Shown piece by piece: positions 42,873 to 55,057 of a stretch of 64,000 bases of DNA. Below the pieces are notes generated by a model. It did no database searches and was not told the origin of the DNA. It saw only the letters and a program-made list of their open reading frames with translations. The stretch is from positions 1-64,000 of the forward strand of contig CT868075.1 in NCBI GenBank assembly GCA_000165425.1, given 5' to 3'. The position numbers were made by a program, and so were the translations under genes. Each line of letters begins with the position of its first letter. Within the stretch, counting starts at the first letter, position 1. Source of the stretch: Paramecium tetraurelia. Taxonomy: Eukaryota.

Positions 42873-43424
42873 ATGGGAGGAGCTTTTGGAAAAAGGAAAG
42901 TATAAGTATTGGTAGTCGGTTTGGATAATTCAGGGAAAACAAGTATCATAAATGCACTGAAAAATGAGAAAAATGCAACAGTGGCCCCCACAGTTGGTTT
43001 TAATAAGGATTCTGTAGAGAAATTTAACTTGAACTTTTAATTCTCTGATATGAGTGGACAGAATTAATATAGAGGAATGTGGGAATAGTACGCAACAAAA
43101 GTATTAGAAGATTGATATAGATAGATTGATGGTCTTATTTTTGTCATAGATTCATCTGATAAAATCCGATTTGGCATAGCTCTTGATGAATTCAAATTGC
43201 TATTGGAGACTCCAGGATTCAGTAAAGACCTACCGATTCTTGTTTATGCTAATAAATAGGATTCTCCAGATGCACAAAATCCATAATTTTTTATTGATTA
43301 TCTGGAATTGAAGTAGTACAAGAATCCTTCTTAATGTTTTGCAGGAAGTGCTAAGACTGGAGTTGGTTTGGATCAAGGACTCGAGTGGTTAAGTGCCAAG
43401 ATTTAGCAGGTCAAACCAAAATGA
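42873..43424 (+). CDS. ARL6: ARF-like small GTPase ARL6/BBS3
   Basis: MGG start, [20 protein letters not shown] (ARL6 signature), FVIDSSD, ANKQD, GSAKTG. One 24-nt intron (43101-43124) containing an in-frame TGA. Confidence 0.85.
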
Positions 43425-43573
43425 GATGCTTTTTATTCAAATTTTGGATTAATATTTTACATTACTAATCATCTTGTATAAGTGTTTGAGTGTAAAACTA
43501 ATTTCTTGATTGCTCATTATTCTAAAATGAGAAAGCATAAAATTAAAAGTTGTCGTTATAAATTTAAATATAA

Positions 43574-46500
43574 ATGATAGACAGTGAAACATTTTTTGCA
43601 AAATACTTGTTGTCGCCAAGACTCTAACATACTGAATCTGACTAAAGACTTATATCCCTTAATGCTGCCCAAATTAGATTATCTCCAGATAGAAAGATAA
43701 AATCCTCTTTTCTTTAGGATGAAATGTCATTCACTTCTAAGAATTCTTAATTGCTCAGTCAAACCATCAGATCACTACTCAAAAACAGTTGGGACTTTGT
43801 TGAAACTGTTCGAGAAAAGAACTTAATTGATCCTCATTTACAATATCATTTAAGGAAATTCAAAAATGATCATGAAAGTGTCAGCGACCTTGTAAACAGA
43901 AAGGTTTTCGACAATATCGAGCATCTAAATTAATACAAGGATTAGATTAATTCTTTGTAATAGGAAATAGTGAACTTGAATGAAAAATGCAAACACAGAA
44001 AAGTATGTTTAAAAAAATTGAATGATATTTTAAATAGGAAAGATGATGAACTATTGCAATTGAATCAATAATTATAAACATTTTAGACAGAAAATTAAGC
44101 ATTAAAAAACCAACAGGAAGAACTAAATTGTTAAAATATCCAATTAATTGAAGAACTATAAAATGTAATAAGTTCCTCGTAATAAACAATCAATTAACTC
44201 AATTTGAAAATCAGAGAAGGAGAAACTCATTATGAGTAGTTAAAATCAGATAAAGATTATGAAATTTAAATTCAATTAAGTCAAACTGATAAATTAGAAG
44301 AAGAATACGATTCCCTCAAATTGAAACTCAAGAAATAAGAATCTTAAATAGGCCTATTGATTGAAAAAAACCAAGAACAAAAATTTGAAATTGAATCACT
44401 CAACGCCTCATAAGTTTAGAATAAAGATTAAATCAAATTAAATGAAGCTGAAATTAAGAGATTAAAAGATTTATGTGCATTTTAAGAAGAATAACTGAAT
44501 TAATATTGTAATCAATAAACATAGACTCTCTTACAATTTACATAAAGATAGAATGAATTGACACAATAATTTAATCAGAAGTAAAATGACCTACTATCAT
44601 AAATTGCATAGTAAGAAAATGAAAAAGCAGAATTATAAGGAAAACTTACTTCATTCATTTAAAAGGAAGCTTAATTGCATAAAAAAATCTAGCAGTTCGA
44701 GGATAGTTAAACTGAGCTTGAATAAACCAAAAACTCATACTATGAAACAATCCAATAATAAAAGAAGTAAATCACTCTATTGACATCACAATGTTAATAA
44801 TATCTTTCAGAATTGGAAAATAATCAAAATGAATAAACTATCTAACAACTACAAAATCAGTTATCATAATCTAAAGTTACGATTAATGATTTAAACAATA
44901 AAATTAAGGAAGAAGAATAAAAGTTAGAAAAATTGAAATAATAAAAGGATGATGACATATTTGCACAATTAAATTAAATCTACAAATTAGAAGAAGAATT
45001 GGAAACTCTAAAATAAAAATTAAAGAAATCAGACTCCTAATTAGTCATTACATCTGAAAAGAATCATGAACTTAAAGAGGAAGTTGAGTCATTAAATGCT
45101 GAATCACTAACTTTGAAAGATTAGATAAAGCTTAATGATTTAGAACTTAAAAGACTAAAAGACTTAACTTTAGTTTAAGAGGAATAATTAAACGTTTATT
45201 GCAACTAATAAGCATAAACTTATTAATAATTTAGTGCTAGATAAAATGAATAAGTTCAATAATTTAATACAAAGTAAAATGAATTGTTAGAGTAGATTGC
45301 TACTTAATAAAAAGATTATGCTGATTTATAAGGAAAACTATCTTAGATTATGTAAAAAGAGATTCTATCACATTAAAAAATTAAAATTCTAGAAGATTAA
45401 GTAAATGAACTTGAAGAATTAAATAAGAATTTACTTGAAACCAATACAAAATAGAAAAAACAATTAAGTAATCTTAATTAAGTGTGCTAATAAAATGACG
45501 TTTAATTGGAACAATAATAATTGGAAAGGTAAAATTTAGAAGAAGCTATTCAATAAAATAAATAAAAACTAAAATAACTTGAAGATAAACTAAATTAATC
45601 TAATTTAATTATTACGTAATATGAATAATAACTGAATGATTAGCAACTGTAACTATCTATCCTTAATCAAACTCAACAAGAATTGTAATAATATTAATAA
45701 AAAGTCTAAATTTTAAACAATAATTTGGATGAATCAAGAGTTTAAGCAGAGTCTATATCAAAATAGAAGGAGGATCTAGTAGTATAACTTTAGAATACAA
45801 TACATACAAATAGTTAATTATAATAATTCAATAAAACACTTGAAAATCAATAAAAATTGATTGAAAATAATTATTCAAGTTTGACTTAAGAAAATAGAAG
45901 ACTTTAAAATTAATTAAGTGAATCTATTTGTGTAAGTAAATAAAAAGAACTTGAAAATTAAGAATTACAGAAATTAAATGAAACTTTTAATTAATAAATA
46001 TCCTAATTATAACATCAATTTACTCAATTAGAATAATCATATCATCAAATAGAGTCAGATAAAAATGTTATGAATTAATAATTGAGTGATAATTCCCACT
46101 TCTTGGAGTAATCTATGGTAGAAAATGAAAGTAAATTAACAAAATTATAGACATAAAATTAAAATCTGAAGGAGGAAATAAAATAGTTAAAAAAAAATTA
46201 GAATGAAAAAGAACATCAATTTGCATAGACAGTTAAACAGTATCATTAAAAACATTAAGGTATGATAACAATTTTAATTATTTTAGAACATAATACAAAA
46301 ATGAGCGAGATCAATAAATTATTAAAGGAAAGAAACGAGGAAATATAAAAAATGAAGTTGTAAATGGATGATGCTTAAATAAAATCGTAGTTACTTAAGA
46401 TGAAAGGTAATTTATTAATCTATTTTAGATGAAACATATAGAAGATTATTAAATAGAATAATAAAATCAATTGATCCATTTTGTGATACAAAAAAGATTA

Positions 46501-49150: not shown

Positions 49151-51851
49151 ATGGAGAACCAAAGTTATAATATTTTCTTATTGATAATTAGCTGTTTTGT
49201 TATGAATAAGAATAATTATATAAAATTTTAGGAAAAATACTAGGTTCTTAATAAATTAAATAATGAAAGTTAATGCTATTGTTAACCAATTAAAAAATAT
49301 AAAAACTAAAAATAAATCATTAAATGGAGTAAGTTATATAGAAAAACATTTAAGCTTATTCGCGAGATGATTGCAGATTTAGACAAACCAGAAGTGAGCA
49401 AGGAAATACTTGAAAATCACACTATAAAACTCATCAACAATACTAAGGAACAAGATTTGAAGGTCATTCTTTAATTGTTGATCTAAATACAGCATTTAAA
49501 TAAGTTAAATAACTTAGATGAGCATATTATAATGTAAGAAAATTTATATAGATTGAAAATAGATTGATAGAAAGAAACTAAAAACAGCATAGCTATCATG
49601 CGTAAATCATTTAGTTATTGCATACACTTAAGGAAAACGTTTCTATATAAAATTTACCATACACATATAGGTTCCTAAGAATATGTTATAGAATAAAGTA
49701 ATTATCAAATAATAAAATAATTATTGTGAACACATAAGTGTTGAATGATGAAGTGCTTACTCAGATTGGGTAATCATGCAAAGGTTATTTGATGAATAAG
49801 TAAGAGTCAGAAAAAAATATATTGGCCATATTAAATTTTTTTATGAGAATAGCAGATGGTTCTTTAGACACTGATTTCGATGATGCTTACGCTCTTAAGG
49901 CATTGAGTTTGATTTTAGAGGAGTTCTAAAAGCTGAAGATATTGTTGGACATCAAAATAGCAGAAGTAATTAATTCTAACTTAAGTGCTTTGCTAAAGAG
50001 TAATCTCAATAAAACAACATAATCAATACAGAAATGTAATCAATTTATACTAATATAGTGTAAAGTATTTTCAAGTTGATAGAGATCCTATTGTTGGGGA
50101 ACAGCTGTTACTTTTTTGATTTTCTCGATACACTCAAGAAACACTTATTTAGCGAGTGTCATTCTATATAAAAATAGCTTTCTTACTAGACAATAGTGAA
50201 TTGCACAGATGCTTTCATTGAATATCTGGGGAATGATAAGTATAAAAATGAGTTTGTAGCATTCTACACTGAAATAACAAAGCAGACATAGATAGAGAAC
50301 ATCAATATCCCCCACAAATTGAAGCAGATACATGAAGTGGTTGGACATTTCATTTAATTAGAGAATATTTATTAGGAATACTCTGATAATAAATAGATTC
50401 TGAAGTTTATTGCAGAATTCAATTTAAGATTATCATAATAGATGCAGAAACCTCAGTTGTTATTATAAAAATAAATTAAAAAGTGTATGAAGAATCTACT
50501 AAGTAAGATAGAGTTTGAATAAATTAACCAAACTTATTACAATTACATATAAGTTATGGATACTGATGTGAGGAACTCAATGATAATTCATTTGATTGAA
50601 CAGAATCAGATTGCTTTTGTGACGTAGCTCTTATATCAAATGAATGATATATCCACGAGCACTTGGCAAAAGTATATTCAATACTATTTGAAGATAAAGG
50701 AGTCTAATGAATAAACAGAATAGCTTATGAAACAGTTGTTATTGAATGAGAAATTGTTGCAAATTGAGGTTCTTCTCTTTAGTCTGTTCTCCTGCAAATG
50801 CTATTAACTTATCATCTAATTATGTAATATTCATTATAATGCATTGTAATTTGATTTGGTATTGTAGTTCCTGTATCAAGAACTTATGAATGATATTGAG
50901 TAGCAACACACTGTTGAATTAATATGTTCGTTAATCATTTTGATATAGGAAAGATCAAATCACTTCTAATTCGATTATATGTTGAAGATGATACAACTGA
51001 AGAATCACAATGAATTGCTGCTGCATTATCTCTAAACAATATCAAACAAGGTGGGAATGGATCAATTGTTAAGTCTATTAACTTAATGTCTACCTTCTCA
51101 ATTAATCTCAACAATCCTGTACGATTGTGTTTAGACAAAGGAGATTGATGAATCAGATTTGGACTTAATCCTATACATTCTATAGAAATAGGATGTTATT
51201 GATGATCACTTTATAGCTCATTTAATGGACATGATCGCAAACAAAGAGGAATATGCTGTTACTCTCTTCAATATCATATCATAAAAGAAGGTTCCAGTGA
51301 AATTAATATTTTATATTGGACAATAAATTTAGAATTAGAAGTATTACAATAAAGACACAAACCAACAATTGCTATTCAACCATTAGGTGGACATAAACTA
51401 TTTGTATGAGTTATGCCAATTCACATACGGTGCTGGACAAATAGATGCCAATTTCATAGAGAGTTAATTGCCGTACTTTGAAAAGTTGATAGAAACTCAA
51501 CAGAATGAATTACTGGAGGAGGTTACCAGGGTAATTAAGTTCTATCTCCAGAACTTCCCAACTTAATAATGCTTGATTAAGTTGATTTCAAAATACGAGT
51601 ATCTATACAATCATGGGAATTCAAATCTCACCTAGACATTGATTCAAATAGTACCTGATTTGAAGATAATTTTGAGTCTTTTGGAGAAGGATGACTAATA
51701 ATTTTAATAATTCGAAAACAAATTGGATAATCTACACGAGTATGCTGAATTTGCAGAATATATGGAGAAGCATTAAATAGCTTTGAATTCTAATACTGAA
51801 AGTATTGAACAAAGACCTAAGATTTAACTCTCTGAATTAGAGTAACAATGA
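49151..51851 (+). CDS. Large all-helical (HEAT/ARM-like) hypothetical protein; start uncertain
   Basis: Long Leu/Ile-rich amphipathic-helix frame in code 6 with several tiny introns, ending ...RPKIQLSELEQQ*. Confidence 0.6.
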
Positions 51852-51876
51852 TATTTGAAAAAATATTTATTTATTA

Positions 51877-54690
51877 ATGTCATATAAAATTTCATTAGTA
51901 GGTTTGGAGGGTAGTGGAAAGACCACATTAGCTAAGGTGTTGAATGATCAGCATCAAATAAACAATATACCTTTGGAAGTCAATGAAGATATGCCAAATT
52001 CAGATGTGATGATCTTCTGTTTGGATGGAAGCAACATGCAACAGTTGCATCATAGTAAAGCAGCATTAGAGTAAATAAATGGCAAGGAATAATTAATTAT
52101 CTTGCAAACAAAAGCAGACATTCAGACTATTGAAGAGGGAGAATTGAGAAATTTCTTGGGTGTTGGGGAGGTGCCAATCCTACCAATTTCTGCCATAAAT
52201 GGAGATGGATTACCTTAATTACTCACTTTGTTAAGTTAATAGGTATAACCAACACAATAGAACTTTTCAGCAGAACCAAGAGTAGTACCTAGTAGAGGAA
52301 AATATAGAATAAACGAATAAAATCAAATATCAAAGCCGATGCAGACTTTTCAAAATTTAATGAAGGATCACGTATGTATGTATAAAAATTGTAGAAAATC
52401 AAGTAACGTACTCCTATGGAATAAGAATAGGAATATATACGTTTGGAGAAAGAGCGTATTAAAGTAGAGAATATGTCAGCTTAATTGAATAATTTTAAAA
52501 GGAAACTAAAAAAAGAAGGTAATTTCTTATCTTATCCTAAGACACTTATGATATTAAAGCAACAGCCAATCCAAGAATACAAGTCAATTTGGAATTCTTT
52601 TTAACAGACACTCTAGCTCAATGTGAATAATAAAAAAATACTCTTTCCACTCAAACTGATAAATTGTAAAAGAAACCTGAGGATCCTCCTTTCATTCCCA
52701 AGAAAACAGGAATAGATGCTGCCACTTAAGTAGAGGATTATGAACTATTCGATTTTGATAGAGAAGTGACTCCAATTCTGAATGTTATTTGCACAAAGAC
52801 TTTAGAATAAGCCTGTTTAGAAATAGAATAAGAAGAGGAATTCCTGGCTATGTATAGATTTAAGGAGGCATTCGAGAAGAGAAGAGTTAATGATAAAACT
52901 AAATAGCAAGTCACAGTGGAGAGAGAAAAACAATTGATTGATTAAAAGACTGAGGTGTTGAAAAAGTACTCCTAGAAATAGGAGAGAATGCAAAAGGTCA
53001 TCTTCAAAGCCTAGGCTCATGCAATAGCCAAAGAATATTTGAAACCCTTGTAAGGATAGATAATGCAACAAGTAATCTCAAGTGGATTTTATCCCAATGA
53101 ATTCATGAATCAATTATAAACAATGTTCATGGACTATTTAGTTGGGAAGACTCAAGAAGAAGTCATAAAACTGGTTGATCTTAATAATTCAATGAAAACA
53201 GCATTTAATGTTACTAATTTCGAAAAAATTCCAAAAGTCAGAAAGCCATACGATTAGTAAATACAAAAGAAAAAGGATAGGTAGGCATTGAGAATGATCA
53301 ATTACTCAAACTAAAGAGCAATTCGTATCTTCTATTAGGACTTGGTTCCTCTTTAGAGTGTTGTTTCAATGACATTGCCTAAATTCTTGGATGGGTCTTT
53401 TGATGAGTGGAAGAGGACTTACGATCAGAGAGTGGCTGAATTGGAATAGAAGGCTGAGAATAATGAAATAAATGAGGAAGACTTTGCAAATCAAAAAAGA
53501 GCTGAATATCCTGATTTGTAGGAAGGATACTTTGGAGCATCAGTGAATAATTTTACTAGATTCGCATTTTCAATGGCCCATGATTAATATTACTTAACGA
53601 GTGATAAACGATTACAAATAGTTGCATATGTGTTAAGGAAAGATGGAACATATGAGATTGTAAATCAAGAATCCAAAAATTATGGAAAAGTATTTAAATG
53701 GAAAAAATTTAGATTACCAATTAAATAAACTGATGATGAGGCATTGTTATTAAGGTTGCAAGAATTGGATTCCGAAATCATCGCAATAGTTTTTGGATTG
53801 CTATTGCCAAATTTATAAAATAACATCAAGGCTTTGGAATGGGTGTAAAATGCTAGATTTGGTTTGTATGATGCATAATATTGTATTCCGTTTGCTCAAA
53901 CCAATGTAAATAAGGCATTTAAATTAGAAGAACTTGTGAAATAAGTTGACGATCCAGAATTAGCTGAAGCACCTTAAACTGTGTTTATGAGTTGTTTCAC
54001 ATTGATGAAGCGATTCAAATAATTTGGCGGTTGGTACATAGAAAATACTCAAGCTGCCACTAAAGGCATGCTAGATTAAGAAATCGAACCCTTTTATGAG
54101 AAGCTTTCACAATTTCTGATTGAGATGAATGAGTTTACACTCGAGAGAGACAGAGATTTCATTTAAACTATTCAAGACAAAGAGAAAGAAAGAGACACCA
54201 TCTTAACCAATCAAGAATTATAAATGAGTAAATTATTTCCTTTAATTTATAGTAATTACTAAATCAAAAATTCCCCAATAAAAAAAAATGCCCACAGAAC
54301 CCAATGTTACTGATTCTGCTCTGCCCTCAGCGAGACCACTTGAAGAACCGTCCGATTACACTAAAACTTAATTCAATTCCATGATCATCGAACCAATAAT
54401 ACTGGATATGAGTGATTCCTTTGAAACTGTGGAATCCTAATTGATTAACCATCTTACTAATGTTGCTTAAAGGTTAGTGAACAGTTGTACATGGGGATTT
54501 GAGTTGAAGGCCAGAGGCAATTCATTCCTCAGAGTGAAATAATTAATTAGAGTAATTATAATAGCGATATAATTAGATAAGGAGTGTTGGTGAAATGACG
54601 ATTGTAAGAAAGCCAGAACCTCCTAAGGAAGAAGTTCCAGTGCAACAGGAGGAGAACAAGGACAATGATGATAATGATAATGATTCCTGA
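51877..54690 (+). CDS. RSPH3: Radial spoke protein 3 paralogue fused to an N-terminal ARL-like GTPase domain and a C-terminal TerD-like domain
   Basis: GLEGSGKTT...TKAD...ISAING, then RSP3 motifs FSAEPRVVPSRGKYR and TQTD...PFIPKKTGIDAATQVEDYELFDFDREVTPILNVICTKTLEQACLEIEQEEE, then DDEALLLRLQELDSEIIAIVF...WVQNARFGLYD...GGWY. Confidence 0.85.
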
Positions 54691-54706
54691 AATGATTTAA
54701 TATTAA

Positions 54707-55057
54707 ATGAATTATTATGAATTATTAGGGGTGGATGACAAATGTTCTGCTGAAATTATTCGGAAAGCCTTTCTCAATAAGATTCGCTTTTGCCATCCCG
54801 ATAAAAATGGGGATGCCAAAGAAGCTTAATCTCTAATTGAAGCCTACAAAGTACTCATGAATTGTAGGGAAGAATATGATTAATCATTGAGATCCCAATT
54901 CAAATACTGTTTTGACACTATGACGGTGAAATGCAATTATGTTGAGTATGAATGTGAGCAGTGTGGAGAAGAGAACCAGATTGAATTAAATAGTTAAACA
55001 AATGTGATTGTTGAATGTCGAAGTTGTAATTTGAAGTTACAAATATTCCAATAGTGA
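54707..55057 (+). CDS. DPH4: DnaJ plus CSL Zn-finger protein, DPH4/DNAJC24-like (116 aa)
   Basis: MNYYELLGV...CHPDK J-domain followed by YECEQCG...IVECRSCNLKLQI. Confidence 0.78.

Follow-up and report, generated by a model that had tools for sequence, protein, structure and literature searches.

A Paramecium tetraurelia Rsp3C orthologue with a switch-less ARF-type G-domain and a divergent TerD-like domain

What might a radial spoke protein be doing with a small-GTPase domain at its front and a long extension behind it? The question is raised by a gene at positions 51877-54690 (+) of the DNA analysed here, the first 64,000 nucleotides (nt) of Paramecium tetraurelia contig CT868075.1 (assembly GCA_000165425.1; hereafter the window, G+C 28.2%). 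The initial annotation, made from the sequence alone, described a tripartite fusion, and the three parts proved real, namely an ARF-type G-domain without switch regions, RSP3 and a TerD-like domain. On sequence grounds the product, GSPATT00038306001, is the P. tetraurelia orthologue of Tetrahymena Rsp3C. The best explanation of the locus as a whole, which we consider about 85% probable, is an Rsp3C orthologue that would serve as the scaffold of a subset of RS2 spokes, with a pseudo-GTPase head and a divergent TerD sandwich in a structural role.

Splicing and translation of 51877-54690 with ciliate code 6 (table 6), in which TAA and TAG both encode Gln, gave a 905-residue product identical letter for letter to the stored protein P0001 (GSPATT00038306001, XP_001437601.1, A0CHD7). 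The gene has five exons and four GT..AG introns of 23, 23, 25 and 25 nt. Its coding sequence contains 36 TAA and 14 TAG in-frame codons, and the single TGA is the stop. The earlier description of one TGA-free frame holds for the junction but not literally for the whole span, which four introns divide. The junction between the G-domain and RSP3 lies inside exon 1, where the G-domain runs in one continuous frame into ...QQNFSAEPRVVPSRGKYR with no Met between them, as had been noted. The features are as follows.

51877-54690 (+): whole gene, ATG to TGA, Rsp3C orthologue of 905 residues (splicing and translation identity; continuous stranded oligo-dT reads)
51877-52371 (+): exon 1, residues 1-165, G-domain and RSP3 N-terminal motif in one frame
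51877-52242 (+): ARF-derived G-domain, residues 1-122, both switch regions absent (Pfam Arf; alignments to ARL and Tetrahymena Rsp3C)
51901-51927 (+): P-loop GLEGSGKTT, residues 9-17
52108-52119 (+): TKAD, residues 78-81
52186-52191 (+): SA, residues 104-105
52264-52310 (+): RSP3 N-terminal motif FSAEPRVVPSRGKYR, matched by the first residues (MSYRFEAEPKVV...) of the long RSP3 relatives that have no ARF domain
52372-52394 (+): intron 1, 23 nt, GT..AG (absent from the X3 and X10 contigs; required for P0001 identity)
52395-52518 (+): exon 2, residues 166-207 (P0001 identity)
52519-52541 (+): intron 2, 23 nt, GT..AG (23-nt gap in the X3 and X10 contigs, reported at 52516; P0001 identity)
52542-54227 (+): exon 3, RSP3 core, helical linker, TerD-like domain and long helix
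52565-53203 (+): Radial_spoke_3 domain, residues 215-427 (Pfam PF06098; profile matches to solved RSP3 chains)
53540-54118 (+): TerD-like domain, taken to be a divergent TerD-family beta-sandwich, residues ~540-732
53732-53740 (+): conserved DDE of the TerD-like domain
54074-54226 (+): long predicted alpha-helix after the sandwich, model residues 231-280 (DSSP on the AlphaFold2 model)
54228-54252 (+): intron 3, 25 nt, GT..AG (P0001 identity; bridged by none of the listed RNA contigs)
54253-54551 (+): exon 4 (P0001 identity)
54345-54612 (+): conserved C-terminal module, residues ~800-880, with G850 nearly invariant, spanning intron 4 (family alignment)
54552-54576 (+): intron 4, 25 nt, GT..AG (P0001 identity; bridged by none of the listed RNA contigs, hinted at by RNA reads)
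54577-54690 (+): exon 5, including the TGA stop at 54688-54690 (P0001 identity)
54613-54687 (+): acidic C-terminal tail, residues 881-905, ...EEVPVQQEENKDNDDNDNDS (counterpart of the Glu-rich tail of Tetrahymena Rsp3C)

The transcript is continuous from the G-domain into RSP3 across 52200-52300, the interval singled out earlier for a check with RNA, and separate transcripts were not seen. In the stranded oligo-dT runs X21 and X22, every bin from 51908 to 54715 was covered; depth was 4.17 and 11.1, respectively, over the junction bin (52220-52323), and 0.18 and 0.49 in the bin between this gene and the upstream open reading frame (ORF; 51804-51907). The first mate lay on the minus strand in all pairs of both runs, as expected for a plus-strand mRNA in most stranded libraries. 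Furthermore, X3 and X10 yielded one contig (52095-52368) that takes in the remainder of exon 1 from the G4 motif onward and a second (52347-53698) in which both 23-nt introns are removed, so these contigs derive from spliced RNA. At intron 4, the loose ends of five X21 reads at 54555 look, mismatches aside, like the beginning of exon 5, a faint hint of splicing. Alternative letters occur at 53705, 53722, 53876, 53890 and 54535 in one-third to two-thirds of the X21 reads and in fewer of the X22 reads, and loose read ends at three exon borders carry mismatches.

The central part of the protein was readily assigned. Pfam Radial_spoke_3 (PF06098) matched residues 215-427 with E 3.5e-48 and 164.4 bits, against a cut-off of 26.4, and profile comparison recovered solved RSP3 chains, six of them full-length (E 7.5e-46 to 1.3e-37) and a seventh that is itself partial (2.1e-21), with Chlamydomonas RSP3 (7jtk_E, E 7.5e-46) as the best match. 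In the family alignment, the TQT motif at residues 243-245, a putative LC8 site, is conserved. The Radial_spoke_3 domain is what the protein has in common with canonical RSP3/RSPH3 (Chlamydomonas 7JTK chain E, human RSPH3); these differ in having no G-domain and no TerD-like C-terminal extension, and their solved chains measure 332-606 residues.

It had been suspected that extended RSP3 paralogues were already described in Tetrahymena. The ARF-RSP3 fusion has indeed been published (Vargova 2021) and is not new, and the main text of Vargova et al. makes no mention of Paramecium. A 2025 report (PMC12399478) describes Tetrahymena Rsp3C as having an N-terminal ARF domain and a Glu-rich C-terminal tail, names Paramecium, Ichthyophthirius and Pseudocohnilembus as holders of it, and counts it among the core proteins of some of the RS2 spokes; the idea of a specialised spoke subtype in the initial annotation agrees with this. 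According to the same report, Rsp4B is almost wholly gone from the cilia of the Rsp3C knockout, which swims at 56% of wild-type speed; the acidic tail is suggested to tune electrostatic contact with the central apparatus, and the ARF domain is proposed to act in signalling.

The Tetrahymena relative in our set (P0005; Q22NW8, TTHERM_00418270) bears the accession labelled RSP3C in the supplement of PMC12399478. It aligned with 93% of exon 3 at E 9.5e-93 and shares all modules in the same order, namely the ARF-type domain, the RSP3 N-terminal motif, Radial_spoke_3, the TerD-like region, the C-terminal module and the acidic tail. Identity per module was 29-53%, except for the linker at 733-799 (9%) and the last two modules (20-24%), and the tail is rich in Asp and Asn in Paramecium versus Glu in Tetrahymena. 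The P. tetraurelia gene thus shows the features of a ciliate ARF-RSP3 protein, with Arf and RSP3 in frame in one product, RNA over their junction and an acidic tail. The same fusion was found in at least five Paramecium species, three Tetrahymena species and Ichthyophthirius. The deposited model of one Ichthyophthirius multifiliis protein (P0009, 838 residues) has an extra N-terminal AAA_18/adenylate-kinase-like part of ~165 residues. Most of the second half of its RSP3 domain is absent, as is a portion of its C-terminal module, and the gene was probably mis-predicted or the model is a chimera.

The G-domain is where the Paramecium protein departs from its Tetrahymena counterpart. Pfam Arf (PF00025) scored 35.4 bits on exon 1 and 29.5 on the whole protein (cut-off 22.3), in two stretches between which profile positions ~45-80 are missing; the second stretch pairs residues 40-122 with profile positions 80-173. 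We aligned the domain, represented by four Paramecium species, with an intact ARL encoded in the window (175 residues) and with Tetrahymena and Ichthyophthirius Rsp3C. The three aurelia-complex copies have a 15-residue gap over switch I (PTVGF in the window ARL) and a 13-residue gap over switch II (DMSGQNQYRGMW in the window ARL). The switch II gap is common to all four Paramecium species, P. bursaria included, and the P. bursaria switch I segment is longer than those of the aurelia complex but is without the PT motif. Hence the loss of both switches proposed in the initial annotation holds against the window ARL and Tetrahymena Rsp3C alike, and neither the G2/switch I Thr (PTxGF) nor the G3/switch II DxxGQ is found in P. 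tetraurelia. A phmmer alignment to the TrmE G-domain skipped ~40 target residues between query residues 33 and 37.

The remaining motifs lie where they had been placed. The G1 P-loop (GxxxxGK[ST]; GLEGSGKT at residues 9-16) is intact in all aligned Rsp3C copies and G5 (SAI) is present, while G4 reads NKQD in Tetrahymena and TKAD or TKSD in Paramecium, an Asn-to-Thr change. The Tetrahymena and Ichthyophthirius G-domains are full length, with EVGGE and EIGGS, respectively, in place of DxxGQ, and Tetrahymena retains the switch I Thr, in contrast to Paramecium. All aligned Rsp3C copies are missing the N-terminal amphipathic helix and Gly2; the P. tetraurelia domain begins MSYKISLVG, seven residues shorter than the ARL. 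Thus, the domain shares with the ARF/ARL family its best Pfam match (Arf), the P-loop and G5, and in Paramecium differs in the helix, Gly2, both switches and NKxD. The ARL gene itself (42873-43424, +; exons 42873-43100 and 43125-43424, 24-nt intron) encodes PTVGF, DMSGQ, NKQD and SAK and scores 72.7 bits with Pfam Arf on its exon 1; it is intact, as stated in the initial annotation, which labelled it ARL6.

The truncated domain is not decaying: its identities to the octaurelia, sonneborni and bursaria copies (93, 92 and 47%) match those of the TerD-like region (95, 92 and 52%) and it is as conserved as the rest of the protein. The ohnologue GSPATT00017500001 (P0070), 94% identical to P0001 (840 of 896 aligned residues), carries the same truncated G-domain. 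Since both switch regions are gone, the Paramecium G-domain is predicted to be unable to act as a GTP/GDP switch.

Behind RSP3, a TerD pattern had been noticed at ~53560-54070. TerD (PF02342) was the sole Pfam family found on the C-terminal piece (E 0.0099, 15.8 bits; residues 581-667 against profile positions 64-150) and the only one to match more than one member; at E up to 1 it matched 5 of 17 domain fragments, the best with E 1.7e-5, and four of the 13 relatives scanned at full length. An NCBIfam scan of the 17 fragments matched no TerD model. An AlphaFold2 model of residues 488-768, built from a 25-row alignment (mean predicted local distance difference test score 84.1, predicted template-modelling (TM) score 0.78), shows a sandwich of 11 strands together with two short helices and, at the C-terminal end, a long one. 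The first five rows of a Foldseek search against the PDB with this model were 3ibz, two chains of 2qz7, 2kxt and 2qng (E 3.5e-7 to 2.7e-6, probability 1.00, target TM 0.63-0.69); three of these entries are titled TerD or TerD homologue, and the untitled 2qng was matched by the TerD profile at E 4.3e-8. Row 6 was 9a6r_B, which its title does not identify (SCP2 is a TerD-type stress protein of Bacillus), and row 7 was 7jtk_A. When the best 998 Foldseek chains were rescored, 3ibz (13.4), 7jtk_A (13.0), 9a6r_B (12.9), 2qz7_B (12.9), 2qng (12.6) and 2kxt (12.0) stood apart from the next chain at 4.4. The C-terminal segment, as modelled, thus has a TerD beta-sandwich fold.

Sequence profiles pointed the same way. 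A whole-family profile searched against PDB sequences placed 2kxt (E 0.007) and 3ibz (0.032) directly after the RSP3 chains, and a profile of 17 domain-only sequences retrieved only 3ibz (6.3e-4) and 2kxt (8.8e-4), the next match being at E 0.93. With hhalign, the domain matched an alignment of E. coli O157 Sakai TerD, TerE and TerZ at E 7.8e-5 over 91 columns. A local hidden Markov model, made from 23 of the 25 alignment rows after two with <100 residues in the region were dropped, gave 33.9 bits for TerE, 27.9 for TerD, 12.5 for TerZ and 0.9 for TerA, where none of 2000 shuffled Ter sequences exceeded 10.8, which indicates homology to bona fide TerD proteins at the profile level. In addition, a language-model search with residues 535-735 had TerD clusters on top (score 0.92; 18 of 30 matches). 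In our reading the domain belongs to the TerD superfamily, as a divergent member lying below the Pfam threshold for single sequences, an assignment drawn from the profiles and the predicted fold. It differs from the bacterial family (Klebsiella 2KXT, Streptomyces 3IBZ and 2QZ7, E. coli O157 TerD/TerE/TerZ) in being embedded in an axonemal scaffold.

Full-text literature searches, with most subscription journals outside their coverage, returned nothing relevant for TerD with radial spoke and nothing for TerD domain with cilia. The text and seven supplement files of PMC12399478, as far as available, do not mention TerD ('tellur' occurs 0 times in the supplement files), and the legend of its SMART domain figure gives radial spoke 3 and ARF domains only. 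The Paramecium switch loss and the TerD-family domain are additions, found in neither the Rsp3C nor the Vargova paper as searched.

The TerD-like module is probably older than the ARF fusion. Four ARF-less relatives (P0006, P0007, P0008 and P0010; 771-802 residues, metagenome records) start MS(Y/F)(R/K)FEAEPKVV, exactly where the Paramecium G-domain joins RSP3, and possess the acidic tail as well as the TerD-like and C-terminal modules; the more distant P0017, P0018 and P0020 (587-730 residues) also have the extension. Because the ARF-less relatives begin at the junction motif and possess the TerD-like module, the RSP3-TerD architecture probably came first, which suggests that an RSP3-TerD protein was already in place when it gained the ARF domain. 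Word-based searches for holders of the module, which are weak on range, found only Paramecium (4) and Tetrahymena plus Ichthyophthirius (2). The C-terminal module at residues ~800-880 matched no Pfam family, and an atlas search with residues 795-885 gave no usable match.

The suggestion of a Ca2+ or metal sensor fared less well than the fold. Klebsiella TerD binds Ca2+ at two sites, given in PMC8779313, citing the structure paper, as residues 40, 41, 42, 78, 79 and 89 (Ca1) and 29, 82, 84 and 88 (Ca2). In the hhalign alignment, D87-D88-E89 correspond to D604-D605-E606 of P. tetraurelia, while D40 is replaced by R563, D42 by Q565, N79 by K595, G82 by P599 and G84 by K601, and D78 falls in a gap; the backbone position L41 remains Leu, and the alignment does not extend to W29. 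Of the published ligands, the protein keeps counterparts of D88 and E89 alone (D605, E606). Among the 13 members of the family, an acidic residue stands at the D40 position in none and at the D42 position in three, and Lys at the G84 position in 10; Asp occupies the D87 and D38 positions in 12 members each, the D88 position holds Asp in 10 and Glu in three, and the E89 position holds Glu or Asp in nine. The DxD ligands and the Gly-rich GDNxTGEGDG loop of bacterial TerD are both lost, the loop being replaced by a basic one. Because most ligand positions are non-acidic, gapped or replaced across the 13 members, the canonical two-site Ca2+ loop has been lost.

We propose that Rsp3C is a paralogue-specific stalk scaffold that would build or stabilise a subset of RS2 spokes, its central RSP3 domain doing the conserved scaffold job. 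In Chlamydomonas, RSP3 has its N-terminus at the spoke base and its C-terminus toward the head. Given this orientation, the ARF-derived domain would sit at the base, near the RSP3 N-terminus, and the C-terminal extension of TerD-type sandwich, long helix, small module and acidic tail would point to the spoke neck and head. The Paramecium ARF-derived domain would be a pseudo-GTPase and most likely has a fixed role in docking or structure; its P-loop, TKxD and SA motifs may still let it retain a guanine nucleotide, with no signalling by GTP/GDP switching. In the distal spoke, the sandwich would most likely serve structure or protein contacts and not act as a canonical Ca2+ sensor.

Several observations pull away from this proposal. 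Reads with alternative letters probably stem from the ohnologue, a strain difference being the alternative. What suggests that the G-domain is still folded is its conservation, and the RS2 location and motility effect would be carried over from Tetrahymena by analogy. Single sequences stay below the Pfam TerD cut-off (15.8 bits against 25.3), the hhalign probability reaches 61.5% and no higher, and phmmer with residues 488-768 against 1.84 billion representatives returned 22 matches, mostly short fragments, with no stand-alone TerD among them. Finally, a conserved acidic cluster (D561, D604, D605, E606) remains in the TerD-like domain and could still bind one metal ion.

This cluster and the surviving G motifs leave some room for a spoke subtype in which the nucleotide-binding module is active and regulatory and the TerD domain, as a Ca2+/metal sensor, links Ca2+ to beating. 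All Paramecium copies retain G1, G4-like and G5 motifs, the TerD homology is real, Klebsiella TerD does bind Ca2+ according to PMC8779313, and the DDE motif and the D38-equivalent Asp are conserved in 12 of 13 members. We nevertheless regard such a spoke as unlikely: with switch I and switch II deleted, the gamma-phosphate would go unsensed, Tetrahymena too has EVGGE for DxxGQ, and four of the side-chain Ca2+ ligands (D40, D42, D78, N79) are lost together with the loop, now basic. It is more improbable still that no homology lies behind the TerD likeness, which would then be convergent or a resemblance common to beta-sandwiches in general. The 12-16% identity to TerD structures, the Pfam scores below the gathering level in 4 of 13 and 5 of 17 members and the hhalign probability speak for this; on the other side stand the rescored structures and the separation of TerE and TerD from shuffled sequences. 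A gene-model artefact, in which annotation joined a neighbouring small-GTPase remnant to an RSP3 gene, might be suspected from the tiny intergenic spacers of Paramecium (~25 and 16 nt around this gene). It is in practice already refuted by a junction within one exon that has neither stop nor Met, by RNA contigs and reads that bridge it, by the recurrence of the fusion across the ciliate species listed above, and by the Tetrahymena protein, which PMC12399478 reports as detected and tagged as a single product.

A broader possibility is speculative and in our view unlikely: the TerD-type sandwich would be an old, so far unrecognised distal-spoke block on the RSP3 scaffold of ciliate Rsp3C-type and long ARF-less protist RSP3 proteins, apparently present twice in the Chlamydomonas head protein RSP1, and would still bind one divalent cation at its surviving acidic cluster, so that ciliary Ca2+, which reverses the beat in Paramecium, acts directly on an RS2 subset. 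The seventh Foldseek chain, 7jtk_A, would be RSP1 (814 residues; PDB 7JTK, 7JRJ, 8GLV), a different spoke subunit with 8% identity, and the ciliate-domain profile gave no match to RSP1 at E up to 10. A similar fold there would link two spoke subunits.

For the preferred reading of Rsp3C as a scaffold, the Paramecium orthologues offer a natural experiment, in that the G-domain seems constrained in both ohnologues and several species with both switches deleted, which argues for a conserved role that is structural or nucleotide-holding, not GTP/GDP switching. The TerD-family assignment would give ~190 formerly unannotated residues a testable identity and tie the axoneme to a stress-response domain that is mainly bacterial. 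What is known of radial spokes stays as it was, with one recently described component refined.

The gene is closely flanked, by ~25 nt upstream and 16 nt downstream. The upstream ORF (49884-51851, +; at least 655 residues, rich in Leu, Ile and Gln) ends 25 nt before the ATG, with a dip in RNA depth in between, and a Pfam scan of it gave no family. Farther upstream, at 43490-46432 (+), lies a 980-residue open frame of coiled-coil-like character, which contains internal repeats of ~330 residues and is dominated by Gln, Glu, Lys and Leu. Downstream, starting 16 nt past the stop, a 116-residue gene (54707-55057, +) encodes a DnaJ domain (E 5.5e-12) and, after it, a tail rich in Cys (CEQC...CRSC), which presumably resembles the CSL zinc finger of DPH4-type proteins.

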